Origin: Escherichia coli
GTDB taxonomy: Bacteria; Pseudomonadota; Gammaproteobacteria; Enterobacterales; Enterobacteriaceae
Direction: 5' to 3' (one strand)
Length of the DNA: 64,000 bases
Assembly (NCBI RefSeq): GCF_030013205.1
Contig: NZ_CP122648.1
The notes under the pieces are model-generated. The model searched no databases and was not told the origin of the DNA. It saw nothing but the letters and a program-made list of their open reading frames with translations. Below are positions 33,831 to 50,187 of this stretch, in pieces; the first letter of the stretch is position 1, and each line of letters starts with the position of its first letter. Made by a program: the position numbers and the translations under genes.

Positions 33831-33878
33831 TCAGGGGAAGGTAAAAAAGAATGCGAAGAAAAACGGTGTGTGTTTCAT
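33831..33878 (-). CDS. pheL: pheA leader peptide PheL (15 aa, Phe-rich)
   Basis: Reverse complement reads ATGAAACACACACCGTTTTTCTTCGCATTCTTTTTTACCTTCCCCTGA (MKHTPFFFAFFFTFP). Confidence 0.9.
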   Translation of the reverse strand: MKHTPFFFAFFFTFP

Positions 33879-33935
33879 GTTTGTTTCCTTAAGTGACTTT
33901 AGTACAGTACCCGTACTGTTTTCACGCTGTCAACA

Positions 33936-33960
33936 AAAAACGCGCCCGAAGGTGCGTTGT
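33936..33960 (-). terminator. Terminator of the upstream backbone gene (raiA-type), now directly abutting the prophage end
   Basis: Minus strand ACGCACCTTCGGGCGCGTTTTTTG immediately before the pheL promoter TTGACA (approximate coordinates). Confidence 0.6.
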
Positions 33961-34046
33961 AAAACCCACTGAATTCAATGTTTTCCCTTTGTTTTCAGTG
34001 GGTTTTGTTATTGGTGGGGGTTACTGATTACCCTATAAAACCCACT
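33961..34046. repeat. Putative prophage attL / integrase arm-site region with AAAACCCACT repeats
   Basis: AAAACCCACTGAA and its reverse complement TTCAGTGGGTTTT form a 13-bp inverted repeat; a third direct copy AAAACCCACT overlaps the int stop codon (approximate coordinates). Confidence 0.5.
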
Positions 34047-35035
34047 TATGTGGATGAAATGTGGATGCCTCCTTTTAATGGATTAAGTGAAATTGCATCC
34101 TGGAGGAAATCAGGAGCGAGGTGCGCATAGGTCATAGTTTGCTGGATCGTGGCGTGCCCCATAATTCGCTGGAGCGTAAGTATATTTCCTCCATTAATCA
34201 TAAAGTGAGCAGCAAAGGTATGGCGTAGAACATGTACAGCCTGTCCTTTTGGTAGGTCTGGCTTAACACTGCGAAGCACCTTGCGATATTCTTCATAATT
34301 GACGTCAAACAAAAGGCCGGATTTCTTTGTTTTGATCTCACTAACAACTTCATCAGAGACAGGAATAATTCGAACTTTTCCGTTTTTAGTTTTGTTAAAC
34401 GTCACGCGATTATTGATGATGTGTTCCGCGCGCAGATTTTTCGCTTCTCCCCATCTCGCCCCAGTACTGAGACAAAGTAGCGTAATCCGCCGAGCATCAC
34501 CGCTTACTGCATCCAGCAATTTGGCGATTTCTTCCGTAGTGAGGTACGTCATTTCGGGTGATTTTCGTTTCAAAGAGGGGAGGGCGCGGAGTGGATTTTC
34601 TCCGTGAAATTCTCCGGCATTTGCCAGGAGTGTAAACATTCCTCCGAGATCCGACTCATCACGCCGAACAGTAGACTCTTTTACTCCCAAGGATAAACGG
34701 GAGCTTCGATAAGCTGCCATGAAACGAGCATTAATCTGGCTAACCCTTGGATCATTCATTTCTTTGATGATTTTTTTCAATCTGGTTAGAACGCCGTTAG
34801 CATATGGCTTATTGCGTCCACCCAATTCCCACCATAACGGAAGCAGATCTGAGAGATGACGTTGCTCTGTTGGCTTTTCAAGCCATTCCTTATCGTGCAT
34901 GTGGCTGAGAACATAGCGCTCAAAGGCCACTGCATCTGCCTTTTTCTTAAAAATCCGCTGGATCCGACGTCCACTTCGGCCACGCGGTCTAACATCCACT
35001 TTATACCGTCCACCATCGAGTGCTTTAATTGCCAT
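34046..35035 (-). CDS. int: P2-type prophage integrase (tyrosine recombinase)
   Basis: Probable start MAIKALDGGRYKVDVRPRGRSGRRIQ...; C-terminus ...HVLRHTFAAHFMINGGNILTLQRIMGHATIQQTMTYAHLAPDFLQDAISLNPL matches P2 Int as recalled. Confidence 0.9.
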   Translation of the reverse strand: MAIKALDGGRYKVDVRPRGRSGRRIQRIFKKKADAVAFERYVLSHMHDKEWLEKPTEQRHLSDLLPLWWELGGRNKPYANGVLTRLKKIIKEMNDPRVSQINARFMAAYRSSRLSLGVKESTVRRDESDLGGMFTLLANAGEFHGENPLRALPSLKRKSPEMTYLTTEEIAKLLDAVSGDARRITLLCLSTGARWGEAKNLRAEHIINNRVTFNKTKNGKVRIIPVSDEVVSEIKTKKSGLLFDVNYEEYRKVLRSVKPDLPKGQAVHVLRHTFAAHFMINGGNILTLQRIMGHATIQQTMTYAHLAPDFLQDAISLNPLKGGIHISST

Positions 35036-35101
35036 TGGCAAGCCCTCCGGTGAAACGAGGAAAGACATTTCCAGTTTGTAAAACGTAAGAATAATAAAGG
35101 G

Positions 35102-35404
35102 TTAACCAATTTTCCTTTCGGATGGGGGTAAATCCGTTGGTTCTTGCCCATAGTGTGCGAGAGCCGGAGCTATCTGCCCGGATTCAGGCGCAATTTTTCC
35201 AGTCATAAACCACAACGCATATTTCTCAAATCTGGGGTTGTTTAGTATTTGCTCAATTACTTCAGCATTAGGGATAGTTTTACCGCTTTCATATCTCCAC
35301 AGAGCATCACGGTTTAAACCAAGCATTTTTGCTGTATCCGGGAGGCTAGTAAGTCTCTCGCTTTCACGCATGATTTTTATGCGCTCTCCAATAGTCATAC
35401 GCAT
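35102..35404 (-). CDS. C: P2 C-type immunity repressor
   Basis: ...MTIGERIKIMRESERLTSLPDTAKMLGLNRDALWRYESGKTIPNAEVIEQILNNPRFEKYALWFMTGKIAPESGQIAPALAHYGQ... resembles P2 C; start codon choice uncertain (35404 or 35397). Confidence 0.8.
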   Translation of the reverse strand: MRMTIGERIKIMRESERLTSLPDTAKMLGLNRDALWRYESGKTIPNAEVIEQILNNPRFEKYALWFMTGKIAPESGQIAPALAHYGQEPTDLPPSERKIG

Positions 35405-35499
35405 GTTGCAATTCTCCAACGTCTGTATTAATGTTTATACAAATGAGTTTGATTTGGGGCATCCGTCGCAAGAAATACCCCAAACAGGGAGATTATCAC

Positions 35500-35826
35500 A
35501 TGAATGAAGAACTATTGAGGGCATTGTTTAAGATCCCGGACCCCATCACCGTCGATGAGTTTTCCCGCCGCACAGGTAAGACCGAATCAGCCGTAAGAAA
35601 GTTGGTAGAGCGTCGACTCATCCCTCTAACTACTGAGCGCGAGGTTTTAGGCGAGGAAGGGAGTTCGCGCCGTCTTCTCATCCTTTGGAATGAGTGGCTC
35701 GAAATGGTCTATGACGCAACGAAACAGCTTCCTCCTGAGCGTAAAGATTGGCGCAATCACTGGCTTAAGAAAGCCAAGAAGCTGGCGGAAGATTTGGGAT
35801 TAGGCTTCCTTAATTTTGCTGCATGA
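35500..35826 (+). CDS. cox: Cox-like excisionase / transcriptional regulator
   Basis: Divergent from C; MNEELLRALFKIPDPITVDEFSRRTGKTESAVRKLVERRLIPL... resembles P2 Cox; Shine-Dalgarno AGGGAG upstream. Confidence 0.65.
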   Translation: MNEELLRALFKIPDPITVDEFSRRTGKTESAVRKLVERRLIPLTTEREVLGEEGSSRRLLILWNEWLEMVYDATKQLPPERKDWRNHWLKKAKKLAEDLGLGFLNFAA

Positions 35827-35844
35827 GATGCAGGGAGTTTTGAT

Positions 35845-36186
35845 ATGAAACAGCAACGTAATTCACGCTTTCGTAATGGTGCTGAACGCCACGCTAACCG
35901 TTTCGCTACCAGTGCATCACGCAGCAACATCCGCTACAGCCTGAGCGAAACACACGCAACGCCGGATGGCTACCCAGTAAAACAAATCGGCGAGCACGCC
36001 TGGTTGATTGAGAAAGCTGGAATCGTGGTCCACAAATGCCCACACAATCCGTTTACCGGAAACCGCATTTTTGCACTAAGCAGCGGCGACAATCAGTTCG
36101 GACAGGATTTCACATTGTACGAAGCACTTCGTACAGTTGATCGTCTGCTTCGCGGACAAAGTTTTATTAAACAGGCTGATTTATAA
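35845..36186 (+). CDS. Hypothetical prophage early protein
   Basis: 113-aa ORF in the early operon; no family recognised. Confidence 0.45.
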   Translation: MKQQRNSRFRNGAERHANRFATSASRSNIRYSLSETHATPDGYPVKQIGEHAWLIEKAGIVVHKCPHNPFTGNRIFALSSGDNQFGQDFTLYEALRTVDRLLRGQSFIKQADL

Positions 36187-36196
36187 CAGGTGCTTT

Positions 36197-36475
36197 ATGA
36201 CCAAAGAGCATGCACAAGGTGTATTTATCCGTTTTATTGATTTTCGCGGTGAACTGTTATTACGCGCATCGGCTATTGATGCTGTAGTTCCGGCAGAAAA
36301 AGATGTGGCCACTTACCTTTATCTGAACGGCACGCGATTGTTTGTGGAACTTCCGTACCAGACCGTACGCGAAATCATTAACGAAGCTGAAAAGGCACGT
36401 CAGGTTAATGGCGATGAACCATATATCGAAATTATCTGCATGGATTCAGAAACTGAAATTCAGAAAGCAGATTAA
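36197..36475 (+). CDS. Hypothetical prophage early protein
   Basis: MTKEHAQGVFIRFIDFRGELLLRASAIDAVVPAEKD...; no family recognised. Confidence 0.45.
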   Translation: MTKEHAQGVFIRFIDFRGELLLRASAIDAVVPAEKDVATYLYLNGTRLFVELPYQTVREIINEAEKARQVNGDEPYIEIICMDSETEIQKAD

Positions 36476-36486
36476 AGGGCGTTGCG

Positions 36487-36729
36487 ATGGGCAAAGAATA
36501 TAAAACTCTCATTAACAAAGCACTTGAGCGTTTTTATTTTCGCTTAAGTGCATCAGGCGCTCATGCTGAACGTGCAGCCCGCGACTCATTGACCAGGGCA
36601 ATTCGGAGTCTGTATGACGTGGCTTTTTACGCTGATGATCTGGATGCACTTAACGAACTTTCCGAGCTGATCTGTGCCGCAGAATGCGGGGAACATATTG
36701 AACCGTATAAGCTGGGGAATATTGCATGA
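36487..36729 (+). CDS. Hypothetical prophage early protein
   Basis: 80-aa ORF MGKEYKTLINKALERFYFRLSASGAHAERAARDSL... Confidence 0.4.
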   Translation: MGKEYKTLINKALERFYFRLSASGAHAERAARDSLTRAIRSLYDVAFYADDLDALNELSELICAAECGEHIEPYKLGNIA

Positions 36730-36839
36730 GTATATTTATCTCATGGCTTGTTCTGATTATTTCGGTGGCCTGCGCCATTGGGATTATGCGAATTATTAAT
36801 TCAGTAAAAAAGATTGAACGCTTTTTCACTGGTGAATAA
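36726..36839 (+). CDS. Small hydrophobic peptide (37 aa), possible membrane-active protein
   Basis: Not in the ORF track (under 60 aa); ATG overlaps the previous stop; MSIFISWLVLIISVACAIGIMRIINSVKKIERFFTGE is one predicted transmembrane helix with a charged tail. Confidence 0.3.
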   Translation: MSIFISWLVLIISVACAIGIMRIINSVKKIERFFTGE

Positions 36840-36925
36840 CAGCGCAAATAAAACCACAGGTTAAATAAGAAAATGTAAAAACAATCCGCATTCGCGGAGG
36901 TATTCGCACACGCCAAGGAGGCGCA

Positions 36926-37129
36926 ATGGCAATTAAGCATTTTCCCGTCGTTCGTTTCACTTCCAGAGGACGTGAATACGAGGTCGACGAACGCCTGATT
37001 ACCACAATCGACAAACACCGTTCAGAACAGGATGCACATCACATCTATCTCACTGACGGCACTTACTTCTGCGCCACGAATGTGGTGCGGGTGAACCTTA
37101 TCCGACAGGTACAGGAGTCACGCAGATGA
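36926..37129 (+). CDS. Hypothetical prophage early protein
   Basis: 67-aa ORF; stop overlaps the next gene start. Confidence 0.4.
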   Translation: MAIKHFPVVRFTSRGREYEVDERLITTIDKHRSEQDAHHIYLTDGTYFCATNVVRVNLIRQVQESRR

Positions 37130-37371
37130 CCATTCTGGACTACATCGCCGCCAATCCGGGTTGTAGCGGTGGAGAAATCGCCGCAGCACTGAATACCCCA
37201 ACCACAGCCATTAATGCGGAGTTACGCCGACTCTGGCGCAGCGGTTCAGTCATAAGAAAAGAGCGCAAAACAGGCGGTCGCTTTTCTTACCAGATAAACC
37301 CGATGCCGTTCGGGTGCGGCAATCCACTTACCAACATGTTTAACCAGCTACTGAAGGAAGCCAGAGCATGA
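37126..37371 (+). CDS. Small winged-helix-like DNA-binding protein
   Basis: MTILDYIAANPGCSGGEIAAALNTPTTAINAELRRLWRSGSVIRKERK... (HTH-like). Confidence 0.45.
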   Translation: MTILDYIAANPGCSGGEIAAALNTPTTAINAELRRLWRSGSVIRKERKTGGRFSYQINPMPFGCGNPLTNMFNQLLKEARA

Positions 37372-37667
37372 GCGCCATCAACCACCAGGAATTACGCGAA
37401 CTGGCGACTGACCTGCAACGAATGGCAACGCCTCAAAAATTACTGGCGTTTCGCGCAATGCTCTCGCCGTCTGCTGTGCTGGCGCTGCTGGATGAGCTGG
37501 AGCACGCCAGAACCACACCTCTCGCCATTCGCCTGACGCTCCATCATGAAATCGCTGATTTCTGCGCGACATTGGAGGCGCCAGGCGAACCGGAAACGCC
37601 GGAAGCAATACAGCAAGAGCTGCTGCAACGCATTGACAAGGTTTTTGATTTTTTTCTGAACCACTAA
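37368..37667 (+). CDS. Hypothetical prophage early protein
   Basis: 99-aa ORF translationally coupled to the previous gene. Confidence 0.4.
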   Translation: MSAINHQELRELATDLQRMATPQKLLAFRAMLSPSAVLALLDELEHARTTPLAIRLTLHHEIADFCATLEAPGEPETPEAIQQELLQRIDKVFDFFLNH

Positions 37668-37989
37668 GAAACCAGAACATGCACACACAAAAAAACCGCT
37701 TGCCATGCCGTAATCAGTCAGGTTACATTTCCGCTGCACCTCATAAAACGGGTGCCGGGATTCTCAACCCGATACAGAGCAAAGCGCATAACCGCGCCAG
37801 CGGTTTTTTTGTGCGTACTGTATTGCCACGTCTTTTTCGCGTCAGAATTATGGCGGGGCGTACGGGGCCGACTTCGGTCGGGCCGGATTCTTTGCTCTCC
37901 GGTGTTGAGAACCCTGTACGTCTCGCCACCCCGAGATTCTCAACTCTGGATGGTGAGTTATTTCTATCACCGAGCAAAGAGGCCACACC

Positions 37990-38220
37990 ATGGCAAACCG
38001 CAAACAGCACCGCGCATACGCTGCGCGTCGTCACATCCAGACTGAAATCAACCGCAGACTTTCCCGCGCATTCCGCGTCGCTAAAATCATGCACATCAAT
38101 ATGCTGCATGAGCGTAGCTGCGAACTTTCAAACCTCTATTCATCCGCTGTTTTCAGCTATCTGGCGGATGATCTGCGCGAGCTTCAGCAGCTCTTCCAGC
38201 AGCAAAACAAACCCCATTAA
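37990..38220 (+). CDS. Hypothetical small basic protein
   Basis: 76-aa ORF MANRKQHRAYAARRHIQTEINRRLSRAF...; preferred over the overlapping Ser-rich 205-aa ORF. Confidence 0.35.
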   Translation: MANRKQHRAYAARRHIQTEINRRLSRAFRVAKIMHINMLHERSCELSNLYSSAVFSYLADDLRELQQLFQQQNKPH

Positions 38221-38292
38221 TTCCTGTTCCGGGCCTTTCCTGCACCTTGCGGCGGGAGGCCTTCGCACATCTGTAGTAAAGAGAATTGCAGC

Positions 38293-38682
38293 ATGATTGA
38301 CGCTCATGACTTCACAAGATGGGTGCGCACACAGGACACCCGTCTGGCTCCCGTTCTTCAGGGATTATTTGATCTCTACATCCGTGGTCGTGACAACAGA
38401 GCACGCACCACAAAACCGGAGAATGCAGACACCCTTTATTTCACAGTAGACGACTGCTACCGCGTGGACTTCACACCACACGGGCTGGCGTTGCACTGCC
38501 TGACACCACACGGCGAATCACTACTGGCGTATTACGACTCCCCGGCCTCCGTATTTGCGGCAATGCTGGCGCATCGCACTGCTGGCGGGTGTGCCTCGCT
38601 GAGTGAATACACCGCTGAATTTGACCGCCTTTCCGCCATCTTCTCGCAGGAGTGGCAGCGCGTGACGGGATACCAGCCATGA
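38293..38682 (+). CDS. Hypothetical protein immediately upstream of gpA (P2 gpB position)
   Basis: 129-aa ORF; stop overlaps the gpA start. Confidence 0.45.
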   Translation: MIDAHDFTRWVRTQDTRLAPVLQGLFDLYIRGRDNRARTTKPENADTLYFTVDDCYRVDFTPHGLALHCLTPHGESLLAYYDSPASVFAAMLAHRTAGGCASLSEYTAEFDRLSAIFSQEWQRVTGYQP

Positions 38683-41504
38683 GTGAGTTTGCATGGAGCT
38701 GGAATGAACCACGACCAGCCATTGATCCGGCCAGATTTACGGAGCGCAGGCAGGAAACTGAAACCGACTTGCAACGCGCCATCCGTTACTACCTTGAGGC
38801 GGACAAAAAGGCCCGGGAAGAACAGGAAGCGAAGGAGGAAGCCTTTTTCGCACAATCCGCCATGGGTAAAAAACTCATGGCATCCCTTGAGGAAGCCGGA
38901 CAGCGTGAAAAGCTGGCACAGAGCATCATCAGTAAGCGCCGGGCAACAGAACAAGACCCAGTAGCCCGTGCCTTTGCCACACTAAAGGCACTACCTGTTT
39001 ATCTGCGTGAACCACTGAGCCGCCACCTCTCTTTCCTGCGCAAAAAACAGGAAGCCGATCGCCAGAAAGGCAAAAAGAGCTGGCAGGCGGAACGCTATGC
39101 ACGCGGAACCCTGCGCAAAATATTCGAACGTCTAGATCGCACTGACGGACGCTGGCTGACACCGGGTTATCGCTCCCTTGCCGGGCGCGAACGCCTGGAC
39201 GATTTGCTTTACCTGCCGCAGCTCAACAAGCACCAGATACAGACGCTGGCCACCATGACCGCGGCGATGTTCAGCAGCACCTTCGAAACACTCTGCGATG
39301 GCTTTGGTGCCAGAGATGGCGAGCTGACCATGGATGTAATGTTGAAGGCTTACCGGATGCTGGCTCGTATCGCATTACGCCTGCACATCATGCCGCCACA
39401 TTACGAAGCCCTGAACAAGAGCGAACCGGATACGGAACTGCTGCCGGGCGCAATCCTTCGCCTGACCTGTGCGGACTGGTGGAAACGCAAACTGTGGCTG
39501 TTACGTTGCGAGTGGAGAGAAGAACAACTCCGCGCCGCCTGTCTGGTTTCCAGAAAAACATCACCCTATCTGAGCCAGGACGCGTTAAGCGAGTTTCGCG
39601 CACAGCGCGAGAAAACACGCGATTTCCTGAAAAGTTTCATGCTGGAAAATGAAGACGGGTTCACGATTGATCTCGAGACGGTGTATTACGCGGGAGTAAG
39701 TAACCCGGTTCACCGTAAGGCAGAAATGATGGCCACCATGAAGGGACTGGAACTTCTGGCCGAAGCCCGTGGCGACAGAGCGGTGTTTCTGACTGTCACC
39801 TGCCCGTCAAAATACCACGCAACAACGGAGAACGGTCATCCGAATCCCAAATGGAACGGGGCCACCATGCGCGACTCCAGCGATTACCTGGTTAACACGT
39901 TTTTTGCGGCGGTCCGCAAGAAACTGAACCGCGACGGCCTGCGCTGGTATGGCATCCGCACGGTGGAGCCTCACCATGACGGCACCGTGCACTGGCATAT
40001 GATGGTCTTTGCCCATCCGGAAGAAATCGACACCATTGTGTCCCACACCCGCGATATTGCCATTCAGGAAGATCGTCACGAGCTGGGCGATGATATTACT
40101 CCGCGCTTTAAGGCGGAGTATGTAGACGGCTCAAAAGGCACGCCAACCAGCTACATCGCCACCTACATCGGAAAGAACCTGGACAGCCGCGCCGTGGATG
40201 GCATCGACCCGAAAACAGGCAAACCACGCGTTGACCACGAAACCGGAAAATCAATGGCCGAGAGCGTGGAGCGCGCCATCGGCTGGGCGCGCCTTCACCG
40301 GGTCCGCCAGTTCCAGTTCTTTGGCATCCCATCCCGTCAGGTGTGGCGTGAACTGCGCCGCCTTGCCAGCCAGATGGCACGCAACCCGGAAGGCCCGCAA
40401 CGGCTGAAGGATGACGCAATGGACGCGGTTCTTGCTGCCGCTGATGCCGGATGTTTTGCCACCTACATTGAGAAACAGGGCGGCGTACTTGTTCCACGCA
40501 AAGACTACCTGATTCGCACCGCCTACGACCTCGCAGATGAGCTGAACGATTACGGCGAACAGAGCGTACAGATTTACGGGATCTGGTCACCACTCATCGG
40601 GGAATCCTCCCGTGTGTGCACGCACCCGGATAACTGGAAGCTGGTAAGACGTAAACCGGAAGCGGAAGACAGCACCCGCGAAAATGGTTTTGACCTTCAG
40701 GGCGGCCCTGCCGCCCCTTGGACTCGTGGCAATAACTGTCCCCGTGTACAGGAAGCAGGCAACAGCGGGACAGAACTGTCGGAAGAGCAACCAACACCGT
40801 GGCCGCAGATCCCTGACGGCGTTGATGTGGATGAATGGATGCGCTCACTGAAACGGCACGAACGCCGGGCGCTGATGCGTTCGCTGCGTGACAAACAGGC
40901 AAAAAACAGCAGTGATGAAATGCAGAGCTGGACACAGAGCCGCAAACAGCAGCGGCCTTTGCCTGATAACCACGAATTACTCGCTAAAGAATGGCGGGAG
41001 TCTGCCGAATCTCTCGGCCTGCATATCGGTGAACAGCAGATGCAGCACCTGTTACGGGGCGGCAGCCTGTACGTTGACGGCAGCATCATTGCACCGCAGG
41101 GATTTGAAATTGTACGCAAACCGGATACCCGCCCGGACAGCCGAATCACGCAGCTCTGGCAGCGCCTGAGCCGTAATCATGGCGTAAGCAGCACGGAGAT
41201 CCGCCATAACCCGGTCGCCAGCTATCTGACACAGCTGGGGGCATCAGACCCTGAAGCCGCCGCACGCCTGGCATCCACACTTCAGCAGGACCAGAACACC
41301 ATGAAAACCCCCGTTACCGTGCTTTCTGACATGCTGCGCGCCATCCGTGACGCAGAGCACGCACAGAGAATCAGTGAAACAACTGAACGCGCCCGCCGCA
41401 AAGCAGACCTGCTGCGGGGTGGCCTGATCAGTGGAAACAAAAAACAGACAGAAACGGGATTCACAAATCCCGTAAATGAGCAAAAAACGTGCCGCGATGT
41501 ATGA
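38679..41504 (+). CDS. A: Rolling-circle replication initiator (P2 gpA-like endonuclease)
   Basis: HUH-type motif ...GTVHWHMMVF... and catalytic-tyrosine region ...SYIATYIGKN...; about 940 aa. Confidence 0.8.
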   Translation: MSEFAWSWNEPRPAIDPARFTERRQETETDLQRAIRYYLEADKKAREEQEAKEEAFFAQSAMGKKLMASLEEAGQREKLAQSIISKRRATEQDPVARAFATLKALPVYLREPLSRHLSFLRKKQEADRQKGKKSWQAERYARGTLRKIFERLDRTDGRWLTPGYRSLAGRERLDDLLYLPQLNKHQIQTLATMTAAMFSSTFETLCDGFGARDGELTMDVMLKAYRMLARIALRLHIMPPHYEALNKSEPDTELLPGAILRLTCADWWKRKLWLLRCEWREEQLRAACLVSRKTSPYLSQDALSEFRAQREKTRDFLKSFMLENEDGFTIDLETVYYAGVSNPVHRKAEMMATMKGLELLAEARGDRAVFLTVTCPSKYHATTENGHPNPKWNGATMRDSSDYLVNTFFAAVRKKLNRDGLRWYGIRTVEPHHDGTVHWHMMVFAHPEEIDTIVSHTRDIAIQEDRHELGDDITPRFKAEYVDGSKGTPTSYIATYIGKNLDSRAVDGIDPKTGKPRVDHETGKSMAESVERAIGWARLHRVRQFQFFGIPSRQVWRELRRLASQMARNPEGPQRLKDDAMDAVLAAADAGCFATYIEKQGGVLVPRKDYLIRTAYDLADELNDYGEQSVQIYGIWSPLIGESSRVCTHPDNWKLVRRKPEAEDSTRENGFDLQGGPAAPWTRGNNCPRVQEAGNSGTELSEEQPTPWPQIPDGVDVDEWMRSLKRHERRALMRSLRDKQAKNSSDEMQSWTQSRKQQRPLPDNHELLAKEWRESAESLGLHIGEQQMQHLLRGGSLYVDGSIIAPQGFEIVRKPDTRPDSRITQLWQRLSRNHGVSSTEIRHNPVASYLTQLGASDPEAAARLASTLQQDQNTMKTPVTVLSDMLRAIRDAEHAQRISETTERARRKADLLRGGLISGNKKQTETGFTNPVNEQKTCRDV

Positions 41505-41549
41505 AGCGCGCACAAAACAGGCAAAAGCGGGATTCCAGAATCCCGTAAA
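41454..41549. repeat. Two palindromic repeats (GGGATT-N-AATCCCGTAAA) about 73 bp apart, spanning the gpA 3' end and the parM upstream region
   Basis: ACGGGATTCACAAATCCCGTAAA and GCGGGATTCCAGAATCCCGTAAA seen directly (approximate coordinates). Confidence 0.5.
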
Positions 41550-41580
41550 CGGTTAATTAATCAACATAAGGAAAATCGAC

Positions 41581-42540
41581 ATGAAAATTTGTATCGACGA
41601 CGGCTCCACCAACATCAAGCTGGCATGGACTGAGAACGGCGAACGCCGCAACGCCATCAGCCCGAACAGCTTCAAGTCGGAATGGTCTGCGCCGTTCGGT
41701 GGCTCGCAGCCTGCGAACTACATGCTTGATGGCGTGCGCTATGGTTTTGATCCGGTCAGCGATCGCTTTGTCCAGACGACCGACACGCAATACCAGTACA
41801 GCGATGTGAATGTCATTGCCATTCATCACGCGCTGGTCAAATCAGGCATCACGCCTCAGGAGGTGGATGTGGTTGTCACCCTGCCACTGAGCGAGTATTT
41901 CGACACAAACGCACAGCCAGACATGGCCAACATCAACCGCAAAAAAGCGAACGTTATGCGCCCGGTGGAGTACCAGAACGGCGAAGCATTCACTATCCGT
42001 AACGTGCGGGTTATGCCTGAATCCATTCCGGCTGGTTTTAAGGCACTGGCTGACATGAGTCCGTTTGAATCCCTGCTGATTGTGGATTTGGGCGGAACCA
42101 CGCTGGATGTGGCAAAGGTTCAGGGGCAACTGGCAGGTATCAGCCAGGTGTTTTGCGATCCACACGTAGGCGTTTCTCTGATGGCTGATGCCGTGCTGTC
42201 GGTGATGGCCACTAACGGTATGCGTACCAGTCACCACATCGCCAATACCATTATTGAGCACCGTCACGATGAAGCCTGGCTACGCCAGCACATTCACAAT
42301 GACGCGCATTACAACAGCCTGATGGCGGTTATTCGTGAAAAGGAGGAAACACTGAAACAACGCGTGATCCGCGCGCTGGCGGGTTTTTCGGGTTACGGGC
42401 GGGTGATGGTTGTAGGTGGAGGAGCGGAGATTGTGGCACCCGCTATCCGCGAAGCCTGCGGAGTTAATGCGACTTTCATCGCGGACGGGGTGCCACAGTT
42501 TGCTCTGGTTAATGGGCTGTACGCAATGGACAAGGAGTAA
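41581..42540 (+). CDS. parM: ParM/StbA-type actin-like segregation ATPase
   Basis: MKICIDDGSTNIKLAWTENG...YSDVNVIAIHHAL...IVDLGGTTLDV...VMVVGGGAEI...; close to plasmid R1 ParM as recalled. Confidence 0.8.
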   Translation: MKICIDDGSTNIKLAWTENGERRNAISPNSFKSEWSAPFGGSQPANYMLDGVRYGFDPVSDRFVQTTDTQYQYSDVNVIAIHHALVKSGITPQEVDVVVTLPLSEYFDTNAQPDMANINRKKANVMRPVEYQNGEAFTIRNVRVMPESIPAGFKALADMSPFESLLIVDLGGTTLDVAKVQGQLAGISQVFCDPHVGVSLMADAVLSVMATNGMRTSHHIANTIIEHRHDEAWLRQHIHNDAHYNSLMAVIREKEETLKQRVIRALAGFSGYGRVMVVGGGAEIVAPAIREACGVNATFIADGVPQFALVNGLYAMDKE

Positions 42541-42544
42541 ATCA

Positions 42545-42859
42545 ATGACGACACCAACCAGACGGATAAGTTTCTATCTGAAGCCCGCCGTCGTCAAGAG
42601 CGAACGGGAGGCGTGCAGTTACCTCGACAGCCTGCCAGCCTCCGAACGCAGCCGCGCACAACGCGCGGCTTTTCTGGCCGGACTGGCTCTTATAAAACGC
42701 ATCCCCGCGTTGGCGTATTCGCTGGCAGAATGGTCAGAAGACGAAATAAGGATGCCACCGCTACCAGTACAGCCTGAAAAACCGGCGAAACCAGCAGCAG
42801 ACAGCGCCCCCCATATGCAGCAGGTGAAGAAGAATATTCAGGCGTTTTTTCCGAAGTGA
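42545..42859 (+). CDS. parR: ParR-type centromere-binding adaptor
   Basis: MTTPTRRISFYLKPAVVKSEREACSYLDSLPASERSRAQRAAFLAGLAL... resembles R1 ParR (ribbon-helix-helix N-terminus). Confidence 0.7.
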   Translation: MTTPTRRISFYLKPAVVKSEREACSYLDSLPASERSRAQRAAFLAGLALIKRIPALAYSLAEWSEDEIRMPPLPVQPEKPAKPAADSAPHMQQVKKNIQAFFPK

Positions 42860-42873
42860 AAACAGGAGTAACT

Positions 42874-43161
42874 ATGTCCACCATTACCAAAGAATGGTTA
42901 CAACGTAAAATCACAGAGTTTAAATCGTGGCGCGAAGACATCCCGTTCGGTCTTGATGAAGACGATCACAATATGTTAATCGCACTGGAAATCGCACTTG
43001 CATCACTGGAAGCAGAGCCAGTGGCATGGATGCACGCAAATAATCCTATTGGAATACCGGCGATAACAAGAAGTAAAGATGTTGCAGACAGCTGGCGCTC
43101 TAAGGGATGGAATGTATTGCCTCTTTATTCACTGACCCGCTCCATCAATTTATGCCATTAA
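42874..43161 (+). CDS. Hypothetical protein (cargo region)
   Basis: MSTITKEWLQRKITEFKSWREDIPFGLDEDDHNMLIALEIALA...; good Shine-Dalgarno (AGGAG). Confidence 0.4.
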   Translation: MSTITKEWLQRKITEFKSWREDIPFGLDEDDHNMLIALEIALASLEAEPVAWMHANNPIGIPAITRSKDVADSWRSKGWNVLPLYSLTRSINLCH

Positions 43162-43172
43162 TGGAAGTAATC

Positions 43173-43532
43173 ATGATGAAAGATAATTCCGGAAGCCAGC
43201 GTGCATCAGTTGCAGTTATGGTAATGATTAAATTTGTGAAACAGTACACCGGAAAGCCAATCTCGCTCCGGCAATTAAGCAAAGAAACCGTTTCACTGTC
43301 ATATCTGGAGCAAATATTCAGATATTTACGGGAAAGTAGCCTGGTAAAAGCCACACGCGGCCCGGGTGGTGGATATATCCCAACAAAAGAAAATTACAGT
43401 GTTGGTGATATTGTCCGGGCAATGAAATGTTCCGGATTATATACACAGCACGTTATTCTGGCTGCACTGGATAATATTTCTTTAACCAGCCTGCAGGAAG
43501 ACACAAATTATCAGTTGTCTGCCATTGAATAA
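43173..43532 (+). CDS. Rrf2-family (IscR/NsrR-like) transcriptional regulator, short form without a C-terminal Cys cluster
   Basis: ...ISLRQLSKETVSLSYLEQIFRYLRESSLVKATRGPGGGYIPTKENYSVGDIVRAM... (typical Rrf2 wing/HTH signature). Confidence 0.65.
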   Translation: MMKDNSGSQRASVAVMVMIKFVKQYTGKPISLRQLSKETVSLSYLEQIFRYLRESSLVKATRGPGGGYIPTKENYSVGDIVRAMKCSGLYTQHVILAALDNISLTSLQEDTNYQLSAIE

Positions 43533-43533
43533 G

Positions 43534-43580
43534 AAAACCCGGAACGGGTGCGCAAATTCTTTGTGCGCCCGTTCCGGGTT
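43534..43580 (-). terminator. Long stem-loop terminator (19-bp stem, two G-U wobbles) downstream of the ogr-like gene
   Basis: AACCCGGAACGGGTGCGCAAA-TTC-TTTGTGCGCCCGTTCCGGGTT; a U-rich tract follows on the minus-strand transcript (approximate coordinates). Confidence 0.6.
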
Positions 43581-43600
43581 GGACAAGCGAAGCGCGTCAG

Positions 43601-43858
43601 CTATCCGGCCTGCAACAACTCCAGAGCCATTTGTTTTTCTTCCGGACGCATCCGCTCAATCAACAGCTTTAACACACCATTCTCCAGCCCGCTGGGCACC
43701 AGTGTGTGCGAGTAGGTCAGATTCATCACCCAGGTATGTCCGCACTCGAGACGGGTGCAACGGTAATACACATCAGCAAACTGATCGGTTTTCCAGGCTG
43801 TTTTCTCAATCACTGCATGTGCACCGCAGCAATGACATCGCGCTTTCTGTCTGCGCAT
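43601..43858 (-). CDS. ogr: Ogr/Delta-family zinc-finger late-gene activator
   Basis: MRRQKARCHCCGAHAVIEK...YYRCTRLECGHTW... (C-x2-C ... C-x4-C). Confidence 0.7.
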   Translation of the reverse strand: MRRQKARCHCCGAHAVIEKTAWKTDQFADVYYRCTRLECGHTWVMNLTYSHTLVPSGLENGVLKLLIERMRPEEKQMALELLQAG

Positions 43859-43923
43859 TTTCCACCTCCCGGAACAGCGTTTTACTGCCACCGATTTTAC
43901 CCGCTCTTTCCCCATACCGCACA

Positions 43924-44958
43924 TCACTCCGTGGATTCGTTAAATTCAAGAATAAATTCCACCTGCCCCAGCCGTCTGATATCCGGATCGCTGTTGATCC
44001 CCTCCATAATCAGACGGCGCATCGGAATAACCTCATCTCTGTAATATGCCTCGCGGGATTTCAGTGGGTCACCAAGCCCGGCCGTATTTGCGGGAATGAT
44101 GCCGGCAAGTCCGGGTGGAAAACGGTGCGCAACGAGCTGATCCTGGGCACTGATGGTTTTTATATTCAGGAACTCATCTTTTGTGCCTGAATCCCCGATA
44201 GGGATCACCTTAACGCCTTCTTTGTCTCCGCCCGGTATATTGATAAACATGGATTTAAAATTGCCCGCCCCTTTTGACGCCTCTATCTTTTTACGGAATT
44301 CCGCCTCGAGCTCGGGATCCATGTCCGGGTCAGTGGAATACAGGATATAACCAAGATGTGCGCCGTTCTTGTAATACTTGCGGCGAAAGCGGGTGGCATC
44401 CACATTCAGCATGGCGGATTCCATCCCGTGAATATAATCCGGGACACCGTAAACCTGCTGTTGCGGGTCATAAATGGCCACGAACACCACTTCGCCTGGC
44501 GGGTAAACGAGATCTTCCAGTGCTGCCTGCACAATCACCGTGCCACCCTCGTTGTTACGCCGCAGGTACAGAGAAGGTAACGTATGCAGGCGCACCACGC
44601 GACCGAAGCCATTGCGCACTTTAAGCAACCCCATATCCCCGAATATCAGCAGATTGGTTACTGCTGCCGCCATGGCGGCGTGTGTCATACCACCACCACC
44701 CCGAAAACCCTGCATGATCATATTGACGCGCGCACGCAATACCGCGCCGTGATACGGTGCGATATTGGACAACATGGCGAGATCCATGCGCTCAATTGGC
44801 GGCGTGTACCAGCCGTTATAGCCATCCCAGAGCGAGCCGTAATAACAGCCCCATGCAGCGACCGGTTCCGGGTCACCAAATTCAATAAACGTCATTTTGC
44901 TGGCTGTTTTTTTTGCCACGCCATCGTGTAACACGGGGTATTTTTTCTTTTTACTCAT
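43924..44958 (-). CDS. Q: Portal protein (P2 gpQ-like)
   Basis: 344-aa ORF MSKKKKYPVLHDGVAKKTASKMTFIEFGDPEPVAAWGCYYG...; size and position as in P2. Confidence 0.85.
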   Translation of the reverse strand: MSKKKKYPVLHDGVAKKTASKMTFIEFGDPEPVAAWGCYYGSLWDGYNGWYTPPIERMDLAMLSNIAPYHGAVLRARVNMIMQGFRGGGGMTHAAMAAAVTNLLIFGDMGLLKVRNGFGRVVRLHTLPSLYLRRNNEGGTVIVQAALEDLVYPPGEVVFVAIYDPQQQVYGVPDYIHGMESAMLNVDATRFRRKYYKNGAHLGYILYSTDPDMDPELEAEFRKKIEASKGAGNFKSMFINIPGGDKEGVKVIPIGDSGTKDEFLNIKTISAQDQLVAHRFPPGLAGIIPANTAGLGDPLKSREAYYRDEVIPMRRLIMEGINSDPDIRRLGQVEFILEFNESTE

Positions 44959-46738
44959 CTGACAGGATCCATGTTGATTTGCGCTTGTGCTTATAGTTCA
45001 GGGGTTCATTACTTGCGGCATGAGCTATGGCAAAGAAGATGTCAGCGTGCCCGGTTTCTTCGCTACGTTCGGCGGTGAAAGTGACTTTATTGCCGCTGTT
45101 GGTGGATTCCTGACGAATGGCCAGGAACGATGCCGGAATATCCGTGGCTTCTTCATCCCACTCAATACGGTTGGCGTAAATCAGATCCAGCATCTTCATC
45201 ACCAGGCGGTTTTTGGATTCCACGCTGTAATGAATGGCCACTGTTTCACGGCGGGCAAATCCCTGAACCAGCTCAAAGACACCGTAGCCAAGACCGGTGA
45301 CGTCAATGCCGATAAATGTCATGTTATAGCGCGCCTTAATGCTGCGGATACGCTCTGCCATAAACTGGAATGACATGCTGCGCCAGTGGTGTTTTTCCAG
45401 CACGCGGAATCGTTCTGCCGCAACCAGCGGCGGTGCCAGCACAACAAATGTGGCGTTATCGCCGGAGCGCGCAGGGTCAAAGCCGCCCCACACTTCACGG
45501 TTACCAAATGGCATGGGCTCTTCCGGGTGAAAATCCTCCCACGTACTGACATCAACACCACAACGCACAAGATCATCGAATTTAAAGACGCTCTCTTTGT
45601 CATCCACAAACACACACATAAACAGCATATTGAACGCTGTTTCGTTGTATCGCTCGCGCAGCTCGTTGATGTCAGCAAGGTTAAAGCCGCCGGCAATGGC
45701 ATCTTCCAGCGTAACCACATAGCGCCACTGACCATCCGGACATTCACGCCCACCATCGCGCAGCTCATCAAAGGACGGAAACTCAACCCCTTTTCGTTTC
45801 GGATCGCCTTTGCGCCATTCATCGCCAGACCAGAACGGGTAACCCTGGTGTGTTTTGGATGACGGCGTGGAGAAATAGGTAATGCGCCAGTGTTTATGGG
45901 TGGCCATCCCTGATGCCACTTCATTGAGACGGCGAAAACCGGGGATCCACAGGTATTCATCAATATACAGGTGGCCGCTGTTTGACTGCGCTGTGTTACT
46001 GTTGGTCGCCAGAAAATACAGTTCAGCCAGATTACTTAACTTAACCGGATTGCCTTTAATGGGAATGCCAAACTCTGTTTGTGCAATTTTTACAATATAA
46101 GTACGGAACACTTCGGCCTGACGTTTTGATGCCGATAAAAATATCTGTGTGTCGCCGGTTAATACTGCATCTTCAAATGCCTCAAACGCGAAGTAATACG
46201 TCGCCCCAATCTGGCGGGATTTAAGCAGGTTGCGTACACGGCGGAATTTGTTTTCACGCAGATGCAACTGATAAGCAAACAACTTTTTCGTAAACGGCTC
46301 AAAACTTTCAGCAGTCAGTCCGGAAACGTCATTAGTTTTGCGGGGACGCTCTTTCTTACCTGCACCTTTTTCTCCGCGTTCTTCTTTTCCATAACGGCCA
46401 GGCTGGGGGATGTCCACTCCCATTCGCGCAATCTCAGCCATTCGTTCTGTATGCTTGTTTCTGACCGACATCAGTTTGACGTGATGACCAATCAGGCGAT
46501 CAAGCTCATCGTGTTCTTCCTGGGTCTTATGGTCACGTTCCGCCAGTACAGCGAGACGCCGGGCGATAACATCCTCCACGCCTTCCGTATTGAGCTGCGT
46601 GTACCACTCAAACTTTGTCGCCCAGTAATAAACAATTCGCGGACTGTTCAGTCCGAGTTTCTTTTGTATTTCTTTTGGTGTGTGCCTTTTCAGATAGAGT
46701 GATTTTGCTGCGGCAATCACCTCATCAGAATACGCCAT
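44951..46738 (-). CDS. P: Terminase large (ATPase) subunit (P2 gpP-like)
   Basis: 595-aa ORF with Walker-like KSRQIGATYYFAFEA and a nuclease domain. Confidence 0.85.
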   Translation of the reverse strand: MAYSDEVIAAAKSLYLKRHTPKEIQKKLGLNSPRIVYYWATKFEWYTQLNTEGVEDVIARRLAVLAERDHKTQEEHDELDRLIGHHVKLMSVRNKHTERMAEIARMGVDIPQPGRYGKEERGEKGAGKKERPRKTNDVSGLTAESFEPFTKKLFAYQLHLRENKFRRVRNLLKSRQIGATYYFAFEAFEDAVLTGDTQIFLSASKRQAEVFRTYIVKIAQTEFGIPIKGNPVKLSNLAELYFLATNSNTAQSNSGHLYIDEYLWIPGFRRLNEVASGMATHKHWRITYFSTPSSKTHQGYPFWSGDEWRKGDPKRKGVEFPSFDELRDGGRECPDGQWRYVVTLEDAIAGGFNLADINELRERYNETAFNMLFMCVFVDDKESVFKFDDLVRCGVDVSTWEDFHPEEPMPFGNREVWGGFDPARSGDNATFVVLAPPLVAAERFRVLEKHHWRSMSFQFMAERIRSIKARYNMTFIGIDVTGLGYGVFELVQGFARRETVAIHYSVESKNRLVMKMLDLIYANRIEWDEEATDIPASFLAIRQESTNSGNKVTFTAERSEETGHADIFFAIAHAASNEPLNYKHKRKSTWILSDE

Positions 46739-46822
46739 AAATAAACCTCACCTGCTGATGCAATTTTAATTTATGCATTTTCAGCAAAGGCTTTTTTAAA
46801 AACGAATATCGCTTTTCGGTAT

Positions 46823-46850
46823 TTTTCGGATATATGCGCATATCCGAAAG
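46823..46850. promoter_or_regulatory. Dyad-symmetry element in the divergent P/O late promoter region (candidate Ogr operator)
   Basis: TTTCGGATATATGCGCATATCCGAAA between the divergent terminase and scaffold genes (approximate coordinates). Confidence 0.35.
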
Positions 46851-46932
46851 TACCGGAAATTAATCAGATGACGACGTTTTCATTTCTCCGTTAAATAACG
46901 CCAGTTTAATTTTTATCAGCGGATTAATTCAG

Positions 46933-47829
46933 ATGACGAAGCAGAAAACAGACTGGGTTGTGGTTGCCACATCAGGCCCCACCATCGACGGTCGGGAAAT
47001 TGATCCGAAGTGGCTGACGGATGCCGCCGAGGTTTACAACCCGGACGAGCGAGCCGCCATGCTCTGGCCATATCACGCCGATTCCGGATGGCGTGCCTTC
47101 ACCAATAACTACGGCATTGTTGATGCCCTGAAAGTCGAAAAATTTGGTGAAAAGGTGCAGCTTAAAGCACGCCTGATCCCAAATCGCTTCCTGATTGAAG
47201 CCAATAAGGCCGGGCAGAAACTTTTTACCTCCATTGAAGTGCGGGAAAACTATCTGGGCACGGGCAAATTCTTTGTGTCCGGTATCGCCGTGACGGATAC
47301 CCCAGCCAGCATTAACACTACACGCCTGCAGTTTTCCATGGGGGAAGCCATCCATATGGGCAACGCAGAGGCGCTGAATTTTACGCTGCAGCCTGATGAT
47401 GAGCAGGCCAAGCGCAACTTCTTCTCCCGCTTCTTCTCATCTGACAATCACCAACAGGGAATTTACCAAGCCATGAACGAAGAACAGTTCAGCCAGTTAA
47501 TGGGTGCCATTAATAAAACCAGTGAACGCCTGGACGAGCTGGAAAAAAACGTCGCGCAGTTCAGCGCGAAGGATGCCCCGAAAGATACCGGTGATAACAA
47601 GCCGGAAGGCAGCACCGGCGATCAGGGGCAGGACAACGCAGAACAGAACAACAAGGACGACAAAACCTTCACGCTGACCACCGAGCAGGGCGAAAAGCTG
47701 TTCTCCACAGTGAACGCCATCGCGGAGAAGGTTACCAGTATGGAAACCGCATTTGCTGAACTCAGCAAGGACGCCACGAAGCTGCCGGGCAACAATCCGG
47801 CCGGTGGCGAAACTTTTAACCTGGTGTAA
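46933..47829 (+). CDS. O: Capsid scaffold protein (P2 gpO-like)
   Basis: 298-aa ORF; position and similarity to gpO. Confidence 0.8.
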   Translation: MTKQKTDWVVVATSGPTIDGREIDPKWLTDAAEVYNPDERAAMLWPYHADSGWRAFTNNYGIVDALKVEKFGEKVQLKARLIPNRFLIEANKAGQKLFTSIEVRENYLGTGKFFVSGIAVTDTPASINTTRLQFSMGEAIHMGNAEALNFTLQPDDEQAKRNFFSRFFSSDNHQQGIYQAMNEEQFSQLMGAINKTSERLDELEKNVAQFSAKDAPKDTGDNKPEGSTGDQGQDNAEQNNKDDKTFTLTTEQGEKLFSTVNAIAEKVTSMETAFAELSKDATKLPGNNPAGGETFNLV

Positions 47830-47843
47830 CCGGAGAGAACACA

Positions 47844-48857
47844 ATGAACATGACACCAGAAGCACAAAAGCTGGTTAATCAGTACATCAGCGAACTGCAA
47901 AAAACATTCAGCGACTGCGGAAAATCAAGCGATCGTTTCTTTTCGCTGACCGAACCACGCAGTATTGCTCTGCGTAAAGCCCTGCTGGAAAGCACGGAGT
48001 TTCTGAGTTTCATCACCTGCATGGACGTTCCGCACCCGCAGGGGCAGGTCGTCACCGTGGGCGAATCCACGCTGCGCACCGGTCGCGTGAAAAGCGGTCG
48101 TTTCGCTAAAGGTTCGGGCATCAAAGGCAACGAATTTAAACTCGTTGAAACTGATTCCTGCTGCGTGATCACCTGGGAACAACTCGCCATCTGGGCGAAT
48201 GCCGGTAGCCCGCAGGAATTTTTCAACCTGATGAACTCCGCCGCCGTCACCAACTTTGCGCTGGATATGCTGCGCATTGGCTTTAACGGTAAAACAGCAG
48301 CGGAAAACTCTGACCCGGAAAGTCACCCGAACGGCGAAGACGTCAACATCGGCTGGCATGAAATCGCCAAAAAGTGGGGAGAACAGCCCGGCAATACCTC
48401 CCGTATTCTGACGGACGCCGTTACCCTGGGCGAAGGCGGTGATTATGTCAGCCTTGATGCCATGGCCTCAGACCTGATCCGCACTTATATCCCGGCGCAA
48501 TATCACAACGATCCTCGCCTTACTGTACTGGTTGGCGCAGACCTTGTGGCTGCTGAAGAACTACGCCTCTACAACAAAGAGGACAAGCCCACCGAAAAAG
48601 TGGCCGCACAGTTGCTGACGAAGAACATCGCAGGCCGCAAGGCCATCATTCCGCCGTTTATGCCGGGTAAGCGTATGGTGGTGACCATGCTGCCAAACCT
48701 GCAGATCCTGACGCTGAAGGGTTCCCGCCGTCGTAAAGCGGAAGATGTGGGCGATCGCAAACAGTTCGAAAACTCATACTGGCGTTACGAGGGGTACGCC
48801 CTGGGCGATCCGGATTTATATGCTGCCGTGGATGAGTCTGCGGTCACCATCGCCTGA
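47844..48857 (+). CDS. N: Major capsid protein (P2 gpN-like)
   Basis: 337-aa ORF MNMTPEAQKLVNQYISELQKTFSDCGKSSDRFFSL... Confidence 0.85.
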   Translation: MNMTPEAQKLVNQYISELQKTFSDCGKSSDRFFSLTEPRSIALRKALLESTEFLSFITCMDVPHPQGQVVTVGESTLRTGRVKSGRFAKGSGIKGNEFKLVETDSCCVITWEQLAIWANAGSPQEFFNLMNSAAVTNFALDMLRIGFNGKTAAENSDPESHPNGEDVNIGWHEIAKKWGEQPGNTSRILTDAVTLGEGGDYVSLDAMASDLIRTYIPAQYHNDPRLTVLVGADLVAAEELRLYNKEDKPTEKVAAQLLTKNIAGRKAIIPPFMPGKRMVVTMLPNLQILTLKGSRRRKAEDVGDRKQFENSYWRYEGYALGDPDLYAAVDESAVTIA

Positions 48858-48874
48858 TAAACGGAGCGCACGGT

Positions 48875-49585
48875 ATGCCAACGCCAATGCAGCGACAACG
48901 TGCCCGACAGATGGATGAGCGCCGTGCGGCGCTCATGACCAGAACGGACGGGCGCGCCGTCAGCACAGAGAGTCAGCACATTAAGCTGCTGGCACTGGAT
49001 AACGATGTCAGACAACTGCACAACATGGAGCTGCTGTCTGACAAGCTGGAATTCAAACGGAACACGCTGCTGCCCCGCTGGCTGCCACACGCACAGGCTT
49101 ATCTGGAGGGGGAACGCGTCTATCAGAATCCCATTCTGGTGTACTGCATCATCTGGCTGTTCGATACCGGGCAGTTTGAGATGGCGCTGCGGTGGGCTGA
49201 CATTGCCATTGAGCAGGGACAAAAGACGCCGGAGAACTTCAAAAGCGAGCTGCCAACGTTTGTGGCCCATTTCATTCTTGAATGGGCAGAAACCGAAGCT
49301 GAACGCGGGAACAGTATCGCGCCATATTTTCAGCAGGTGTTTGAAAAAATCCGCGACAAATGGCGCGTGAATGAACGCCTTGCTGCCCGCTACTGGCGCT
49401 TTGCAGGCATCCTGCTGCTGCGCGGCGATGACGGCAAGCCACAGGCCAGCGCAATTAACGATCCGGAGAGACTGCAACAGGCCGACCAGTGCCTGGAACG
49501 GGCTGCCTGGCTGCATCCCAAAATTCAGGTGAAAACCCTGCGCCAGCGCATTGCCGCAAGACTGCGCGCGTTGCAGGGCACGTAA
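48875..49585 (+). CDS. M: Terminase small/endonuclease subunit (P2 gpM-like)
   Basis: 236-aa ORF following the capsid gene. Confidence 0.8.
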   Translation: MPTPMQRQRARQMDERRAALMTRTDGRAVSTESQHIKLLALDNDVRQLHNMELLSDKLEFKRNTLLPRWLPHAQAYLEGERVYQNPILVYCIIWLFDTGQFEMALRWADIAIEQGQKTPENFKSELPTFVAHFILEWAETEAERGNSIAPYFQQVFEKIRDKWRVNERLAARYWRFAGILLLRGDDGKPQASAINDPERLQQADQCLERAAWLHPKIQVKTLRQRIAARLRALQGT

Positions 49586-49683
49586 ACGACTCCCAACAAC
49601 CGGGCGGGCGCGGTGGAGGTGTGCCGGCAAAAGCCATCAGCACACTGCGGAAACCGGTCAGCCCGCCTTTCCCCGGAGTGAGC

Positions 49684-50178: not shown

Positions 50179-50187
50179 GGAAATGGT

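Follow-up and report, generated by a model that had tools for sequence, protein, structure and literature searches.

A P2-family prophage at the raiA terminator of Escherichia coli and candidate Cox boxes on its int-proximal attachment arm

The border between a prophage and the pheL-pheA region of Escherichia coli raises two questions, namely which sequence served as the target of the insertion and which factor recognizes the three short repeats that lie directly beside it. The locus is part of a stretch of 64,000 nucleotides, referred to here as the window; annotation and the distal prophage end were taken from the record of E. coli ETEC4079 (NZ_CP122643.1), which is 100% identical to it. The host genes are ordered aroF (+), tyrA (+), pheA (-), and the Phe leader with pheL (-). 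In the original prediction, a prophage was placed between the terminator of the upstream gene and pheL, at a site other than the classical P2 attachment site and with raiA outside the window, and the repeats were regarded as arm-type sites of the integrase. Apart from this locus, positions 1-15900 of the window comprise a genomic island next to ssrA (tmRNA gene 15523-15885, -) that harbors genes for a tyrosine integrase (14127-15356, -) and a serine 'recombinase family' protein (12288-13844, -), a pair of ParB-like genes, IS1 copies, and a type I restriction-modification system whose R subunit is frameshifted. Furthermore, the identical RefSeq record lists dgcN (yfiN, about 27869-29095) as a pseudogene that contains an internal stop.

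The insertion site was delimited by a three-way alignment of the pheL-side junction, the empty K-12 site, and the raiA-side junction. The core copies are identical at 26/27 positions and the flanks diverge on both sides. Uninfected K-12 harbors one core copy, between raiA and pheL, and the ETEC4079 record contains a second one at positions 1284288-1284314, 34.6 kb away at the other prophage end, where it adjoins an intact raiA. The core sequence at 33933-33959 reads ACAAAAAACGCGCCCGAAGGTGCGTTG, and its minus strand specifies a GC hairpin, closed by a UUCG loop and followed by a U run; such a GC-rich hairpin with its T run, placed at the end of a gene, has the properties of a rho-independent terminator. 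The native copy sits 23 nt after the raiA stop codon. Beyond the raiA-side core, the sequence continues with GCGATACACTC..., followed by the intact raiA and then by bamD, rluD, and clpB in normal order. Since the identity is confined to 27 bp and raiA is intact at the other end, the raiA terminator represents the att core and no rearrangement took place. Integration inside the terminator hairpin also accounts for the presence of the core at both ends together with a raiA gene that keeps a perfect terminator. On sequence grounds, the region 33933-34067 is the int-proximal junction (B-O-P', attL in P2 nomenclature) of a prophage of the P2 family (Peduoviridae), and the alignment shows the phage inserted inside the raiA terminator hairpin, apparently by Int-mediated recombination.

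Much of the original prediction is borne out by these data. A P2-family prophage does separate raiA from pheL, the site is not a classical one of P2, and raiA, although outside the window, is found intact just past the distal prophage end in the same genome; a larger rearrangement, which had been named as the refuting outcome, is contradicted by this arrangement, and the event is a simple insertion. The position between terminator and pheL has to be revised, as the terminator hairpin itself is the 27-bp crossover core and occurs at both ends. No description of a prophage site at raiA/yfiA-pheL was found in the literature searched.

The only difference between the core copies is T33953 on the pheL side, against C in the raiA-side copy and in K-12. 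As this one mismatch is situated toward the phage within the pheL-side copy, strand exchange probably occurred to its left, around the hairpin loop. The two halves of the terminator dyad would then act as inverted core-type Int sites, with strand exchange taking place around the loop between them. The phage flank to the right of the core (TAAAACCCACTGAAT; window 33960-33975) and the host flank that it replaced (GCGATACACTCAAT; L003 1861-1875) share 8/11 positions after a 1-nt shift, a likeness that may be extended att homology or coincidence. In one IMG/VR contig (L064), the P' arm is broken within the core at the hairpin loop (window 33947/33948) and joined to a 48-kb plasmid-like element, and the flank acquired there, GAGCGTTTG, is similar to the core half that was lost, GCGCGTTTT. 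This junction occurs in none of the complete E. coli genomes, so that the contig reflects either insertion at a secondary site or a chimeric assembly. In the set of 5,426 complete E. coli genomes, 5,425 align with the target as far as 33959, 124 contain the phage arm, and 122, of varied origin, carry the full junction as a clean insertion (about 2%). The features of the locus are compiled in Table 1.

Table 1. Features of the prophage junction and its surroundings (positions refer to the window).
Feature	Position	Strand	Basis or remark
pheA, host backbone	32572..33732	-	386-aa ORF; RefSeq annotation of NZ_CP122643.1
Phe leader/attenuator incl. pheL (33831-33878)	33754..33879	-	Rfam RF01859, 132 bits, E 5e-25
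TTGACA, probable -35 hexamer of the pheL-pheA promoter (inferred)	33928..33933	-	read from sequence
att core, 27 bp, ACAAAAAACGCGCCCGAAGGtGCGTTG, raiA rho-independent terminator hairpin, hybrid copy with T33953	33933..33959	terminator acts on - strand	three-way alignment
prophage body	33960..64000		whole element 34,603 bp, ending about 4.6 kb past the window
palindrome arm near the core, AAAACCCACTGAA, motif copy 1	33961..33973	+	repeat search; candidate Cox box
ATTCAATGTTTTC, best IHF-consensus match in the P' arm (2 mismatches), in the palindrome spacer	33973..33985	+	chance level
palindrome arm 2, TTCAGTGGGTTTT on the + strand, motif copy 2	33994..34006	-	repeat search
GGTGGGGGTTAC	34013..34024	-	positional counterpart of the conserved GATACCCC block in related phages
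ATTACCCTAT (reverse complement ATAGGGTAAT), GGGT-type box 10 bp from motif copy 3	34027..34036	+	read from sequence
AAAACCCACT motif copy 3, abuts the int stop codon	34037..34046	+	repeat search
int, P2-type tyrosine integrase	34046..35035	-	Pfam Int_N (PF24624) and Phage_integrase (PF00589)
P' arm-type Int sites, ATGTGGATG x2 (34048-56, 34059-67), 11-bp spacing	34048..34067	+	within the last int codons
C-type immunity repressor (HTH)	35102..35404	-	Pfam HTH_31/HTH_3; PHROG 147
inverted pair TTTGGGGCAT ... ATACCCCAAA in the C-cox switch region, by the cox ribosome-binding site	35453..35484		kept in ~30 switch regions
cox homologue (excision directionality factor, Pc repressor)	35500..35826	+	28% identical to P2 Cox

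On the host side, both the upstream terminator and the pheL promoter had been considered intact. This holds for the promoter and the leader: the promoter and the 27 bp upstream of it are preserved except for T33953, the attenuator is intact, and the whole segment from the hairpin through pheL otherwise equals the empty K-12 site. The terminator copy beside pheL carries T33953 in place of C. The native terminator, AACGCGCC-UUCG-GGCGCGUU followed by U6, is calculated at -14.4 kcal/mol, the hybrid one, with its A.C mismatch, at -9.0 kcal/mol; the latter was not among the matches of a terminator consensus scan. The pheL promoter went unlisted in the corresponding scan because of its weak -10 element, and its TTGACA hexamer overlaps the att core by one base. 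As int and pheL are both encoded on the minus strand, C-int transcripts run toward pheL, where they would encounter the palindrome hairpin and then the hybrid terminator. According to the calculated energies, this weakened terminator is what would separate the constitutively transcribed C-int operon from the pheL-pheA promoter in lysogens. Candidate sites of recombination factors and the weakened terminator come to lie immediately upstream of the -35 hexamer, and pheA may experience a slight polar effect.

The prophage itself is a mosaic of P2-like early and head genes and a P88-like replication/ParM module. ParM and partition genes lie beside the replication endonuclease gene (window, about 39500-42900), and at the distal end, immediately within the raiA-side junction (L002 12476-14186), genes for a hok/gef-family toxin and for a Com-like regulator with a DNA methyltransferase are present. 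A megablast search of the int/att region against 50,697 phage records yielded no match. Two alleles of the C repressor (100% and 72% identity) occur together with identical Int and 97-100% identical Cox proteins (L010-L036), and each of them is accompanied by its own operator half of the switch region (35102-35500), which indicates immunity swapping within one integration lineage.

Int shares 54% identity with P2 Int over 324 aa, including the ARWGE, LRH, and YAH blocks, and carries the Y/D/R arm-discriminator pattern. This pattern marks integrases that use P2-type arm sites, for which the consensus tgTGGaCa was described (PMC3448106). The gene reads toward pheL and ends with the stop codon at 34046-34048, so that the feature 87 bp past the core, originally taken for the start of int about 90 bp beyond the junction, is its stop codon. 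Besides the two P' arm sites overlapping the last int codons, the distal (P) arm carries TGTGGAC and TGTGGAT, 11 bp apart and 40 bp from the core, and an IHF-like sequence (AAACAATTCGTTA, 1 mismatch) is located between these sites and the core. Judged by consensus and placement, the TGTGGA(T/C) direct repeats are the true arm-type sites, and in every feature testable here the locus has the appearance of a P2-type Int/IHF/Cox recombination module.

The AAAACCCACT copies occupy the 88 bp that separate the core from the P' arm sites (33960-34047). Exact copies are present at 33961-33970 (+), 33997-34006 (-), and 34037-34046 (+), with centre-to-centre spacings of 36 and 40 bp, which confirms the three-motif junction of the original prediction. 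A shuffled 64-kb window is expected to contain 0.12 copies, and four were reached in 0/100 shuffles. The fourth copy of the window (63585-63594, -) lies within tail-region coding sequence and is probably a chance match; it was rejected as a marker of the other prophage end on account of its intragenic position. Copies 1 and 3 are part of an 11-nt direct repeat, TAAAACCCACT (33960-70 and 34036-46). Copies 1 and 2 form the predicted 13-bp inverted repeat, in which AAAACCCACTGAA (33961-73) pairs perfectly with TTCAGTGGGTTTT (33994-34006) and which can be extended to 18-nt arms with 89% complementarity. Copy 3 and ATAGGGTAAT are direct GGGT boxes at a spacing of 10 bp, and the GGTGGGGGTTAC sequence between the palindrome and this pair is similar to the invariant TTTGGGGTAT box of the C-cox switch region. 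The 91-bp arm contains six G3/C3 runs, a number equalled by 0/5,000 shuffles. Among E. coli lysogens, the run at 34016-34020 varies from 5 to 7 G, and A33964C and T33999C are located inside motif copies; the motif copies are no better conserved than the spacers.

Related phages show which of these features are shared. The comparison comprised the annotated attL of Klebsiella phage 3LV2017, one locus each of Klebsiella michiganensis and Sodalis, and several IMG/VR and metagenome contigs; a search of genome contigs with Int revealed only four loci, and most IMG/VR contigs lack the arm because they stop at the int stop codon. In int direction, the common layout consists of two CATCCAC arm sites, the end of int, a GATACCCC(A/T) block, an inverted repeat, and a terminator hairpin. 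The inverted repeats have arms of 8-13 bp around an AT-rich spacer of 10-24 nt, and their sequences differ, with AAAACCCACTGAA here, (A)CCCCATGA(T) in the Klebsiella group, CCTTGATA in another group, and GGGATTAAG in Sodalis. The shape of the palindrome and not its sequence is thus conserved across the E. coli, Klebsiella, and Sodalis relatives. Each relative has a different rho-independent terminator hairpin as its presumed core, with attL/attR confirmed for 3LV2017 only. Only the E. coli lineage has motif copy 3; in the relatives, the homologous DNA codes for an Int tail that is six residues longer. It appears doubtful that these sequences delineate an integrase clade specialized for host terminator hairpins as cores and equipped with a core-adjacent palindrome as a separate element that P2 is not known to have. 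If such an element exists, it could be a structured 3' UTR of int or a second assembly site deciding on occupancy by Int, Cox, or IHF.

For the repeats themselves, binding by the Cox homologue of the phage is the favored reading and is given an even chance. The element encodes what appears to be a Cox-family protein in the gene position known from P2, and its sequence and fold matches, weak as they are, all point to P2 Cox. They comprise PDB entry 4lhf (E 1.7e-4), PHROG 272 (E 2e-4), and Pfam Phage_Cox (24.6 bits, under the 27.5-bit cut-off); 4lhf is also the best Foldseek match of the structural model, with a probability of 0.96 for a model of low confidence. RefSeq names some of its alleles 'Cox family DNA-binding protein', and the 124 genomes that contain the gene are precisely those that contain the arm. 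In P2, at least six Cox boxes extend over at least 70 bp, and their orientation in attP is mixed (PMC3936717). The P2 record lists, in this order, the Int sites of the P arm, the IHF site, the 27-bp core, the Cox region (24399-24472), and the Int sites of the P' arm (24470-96), which overlap the int stop, and two box-like sequences of the P2 P' arm, GGGCTTTCA ... TGAAAGCCC, form an inverted pair of 9 bp. The three exact AAAACCCACT copies and the GGGT/ACCC boxes lie within 33960-34047, the same position as the P2 Cox footprint; as core, Cox region, and P' arm follow the same geometry, the AAAACCCACT copies fill the interval that is protected by Cox in P2 and are candidate boxes for the Cox homologue. 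In a mechanism of this kind, the AAAACCCACT copies and the neighboring GGGT/ACCC boxes would be recognized by Cox, which during excision would coat and bend 33960-34047 so that arm-bound Int reaches the core. Cox on this interval would also block reintegration, and IHF might assist via a bend site in the palindrome.

The C-cox switch region offers a second place at which the specificity of Cox may be read. By analogy with the P2 layout, its TTTGGGGCAT/ATACCCCAAA pair is a probable candidate for the Cox operator. About 30 distinct switch regions of relatives keep a TTTGGGGTAT ... CCCC pair whatever the C allele, and the predicted recognition helix of Cox is as conserved as this pair. The GATACCCC box of the relatives' P' arm is common to arm and operator, a divergent relative shows CAGTGGGTAT 10 bp from GGGGTGT in its operator, and the presence of three G4/C4 runs in the arm reaches p <= 0.001 in four relatives. 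In the phage of the window, AGTGGGTTTT and TGGGGTATT are identical at 6/9 positions, and TTTGGGGCAT/ATACCCCAAA resemble AGTGGGTTT to the same degree (6/9), with no shared exact word above chance. The C-cox switch region of the window contains no exact AAAACCCACT, and the longest word common to arm and switch region is no better than chance. Moreover, the AAAACCCACT spacing of 36/40 bp deviates from the 10-11 bp typical of boxes for Cox and other directionality factors, which is found solely between copy 3 and ATAGGGTAAT. Finally, the recognition helix of Cox is conserved clade-wide, yet the palindrome differs among relatives (CCCCATGA, CCTTGATA, GGGATTAAG). As the palindrome varies while the helix does not, a structural or IHF constraint fits the palindrome better than a conserved Cox specificity. 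The C repressor was considered as the palindrome binder as well and rejected, since the same arm occurs with two C alleles (100%, 72%) and phages with different operators have a common palindrome.

According to the second reading, the palindrome is a bend site for host IHF, resembling lambda H', that folds the P' arm for Int, with the exact repeats being incidental. This is regarded as possible, at clearly lower probability than binding by Cox. In the relatives, the int-proximal palindrome arm, at the same position, fits the consensus WATCAANNNNTTR; three phages show perfect matches (TATCAAGGGGTTG, AATCAAATTGTTA, TATCAATAGGTTG; shuffle p about 0.007 each), four more deviate by one mismatch, and the N positions vary while TCA and TT are kept in every arm, that of the window included. 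The motif arms of the window, on the other hand, are three mismatches away from WATCAANNNNTTR, and its best site with two mismatches (Table 1) is equalled in 80% of shuffles. A bend site would also leave the perfect 13-bp dyad, the third copy, and the enrichment of G runs unexplained, and P2 has its IHF site on the other arm.

Alternatively, the inverted repeat may act as RNA, i.e. as a hairpin in the 3' UTR of the C-int transcript that precedes the core terminator and sets stability or processing of the int mRNA. The int-sense RNA is predicted to fold into the 13-bp stem followed by the terminator (z = -4.0), and the hairpin alone reaches -20.3 kcal/mol (z = -6.5). Equivalent stable hairpins of different sequence were obtained for 7/8 relatives, with pairing that reaches into the 'spacer', and the E. 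coli variant T33999C results in a G.U pair in the int-sense RNA. Other variants (A33964C; L091) disrupt the stem or permit a wobble pair on the opposite strand only, one relative (L066) is nearly devoid of the hairpin, the third motif copy is left without an explanation, and there is no match to an Rfam family. In addition, the element remains linked to int in the free phage as well as in the prophage, which excludes a state-dependent control of the sib type. A role as RNA is considered unlikely. The strand bias of wobble pairs was discarded as a sign of such a role, the variants being too few and disagreeing, and the palindrome was also rejected as an int terminator because relatives lack a U-tract after it.

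Still less probable is a lack of any function, with the repeats as leftovers of local duplication or drift in a non-coding spacer. The few E. coli polymorphisms, which fall inside the motifs as often as outside, would agree with this, as would the loss of most of the palindrome in one relative (L060, L066); three exact 10-11-mers in 86 bp, against 0.12 expected in 64 kb, do not, and neither does the persistence of the palindrome in relatives whose Int is only 58-65% identical and in which the sequence has changed on both arms. The least probable reading is the original one, in which the N-terminal domain of Int binds the AAAACCCACT copies as arm-type sites: the reverse complement AGTGGGT has GTGG in common with TGTGGAY, copy 3 abuts the true arm sites, and the homologous position in some relatives is GGTGGATG, an inverted arm-like sequence, but the canonical sites are already present on both arms in the number, spacing, and position known from P2, AAAACCCACT has no copy on the P arm, its copies are inverted and 36-40 bp apart instead of direct at about one helical turn, and relatives with the same arm-site sequence have dissimilar palindrome arms. 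Extra core-type Int sites were rejected as well: AACCCAC agrees with the phage core half AACGCAC at 6/7 positions, which has a probability of ~0.2 by chance (hand estimate), and 3LV2017 and L006 have one palindrome yet different cores. Boxes for Cox thus rank first, followed by an IHF bend site, the RNA hairpin, absence of function, and Int arm sites.

Nothing at the junction suggests a new mechanism; it is an ordinary P2-type attachment site at a bacterial target for which no description was found. For annotation, its value lies in the exact boundaries and the crossover core of a prophage present in ~2% of complete E. coli genomes, and in the correction of a likely error, the most conspicuous repeats being taken for 'arm sites'. 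As the target occurs in 5,425/5,426 E. coli genomes, the Int/attP pair could be usable as an additional orthogonal single-copy integration system.

Among known systems, lambda attP is alike in its heterobivalent integrase, its arm sites, a core-adjacent bend site (H') on the int-proximal arm, and a small excision factor of the winged-helix type with several binding sites. It belongs to different sequence families, carries its Xis sites on the P arm, and has a core other than a terminator hairpin. P88-like coliphages (Xuanwuvirus) share the replication endonuclease and ParM/partition module (96% identity over 3.2 kb) and an Int with 57% identity; unlike this module, the rest of the prophage, the int/att region included, is without a close match in the phage collection. 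Among sequenced phages, Klebsiella phage 3LV2017 (Peduoviridae, Reginaelenavirus) comes closest, with identities of 64% for Int, 63% for C, and 69% for Cox. It shows the same attL layout, as do related Klebsiella and Enterobacter prophages, and differs in its core terminator (AAACCCGGAGCACTCCGGGTT), its palindrome (CCCCATGA), and an Int that is 6 aa longer at the C terminus; nucleotide similarity between the two is below detection by megablast. P2 differs in core sequence and target (the loc sites instead of the raiA terminator), in its Cox (28% identity, 91 aa vs 108 aa here), in boxes of the type TTAAA(G/C)NC(A/C) where the candidates here are of the G-run or AAAACCCACT type, and in its tail and lysis modules. 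The order attachment site, int, C, and cox with face-to-face promoters, the TGTGGAC-type arm sites with two direct repeats per arm, and the 27-bp core are the same as in P2, and an IHF-like site lies on the P arm in both phages. The distances agree closely: the P' arm sites are 87 bp away from the core in P2 and 89 bp in the present phage, and on the P arm the values are 36 bp and 40 bp, respectively.
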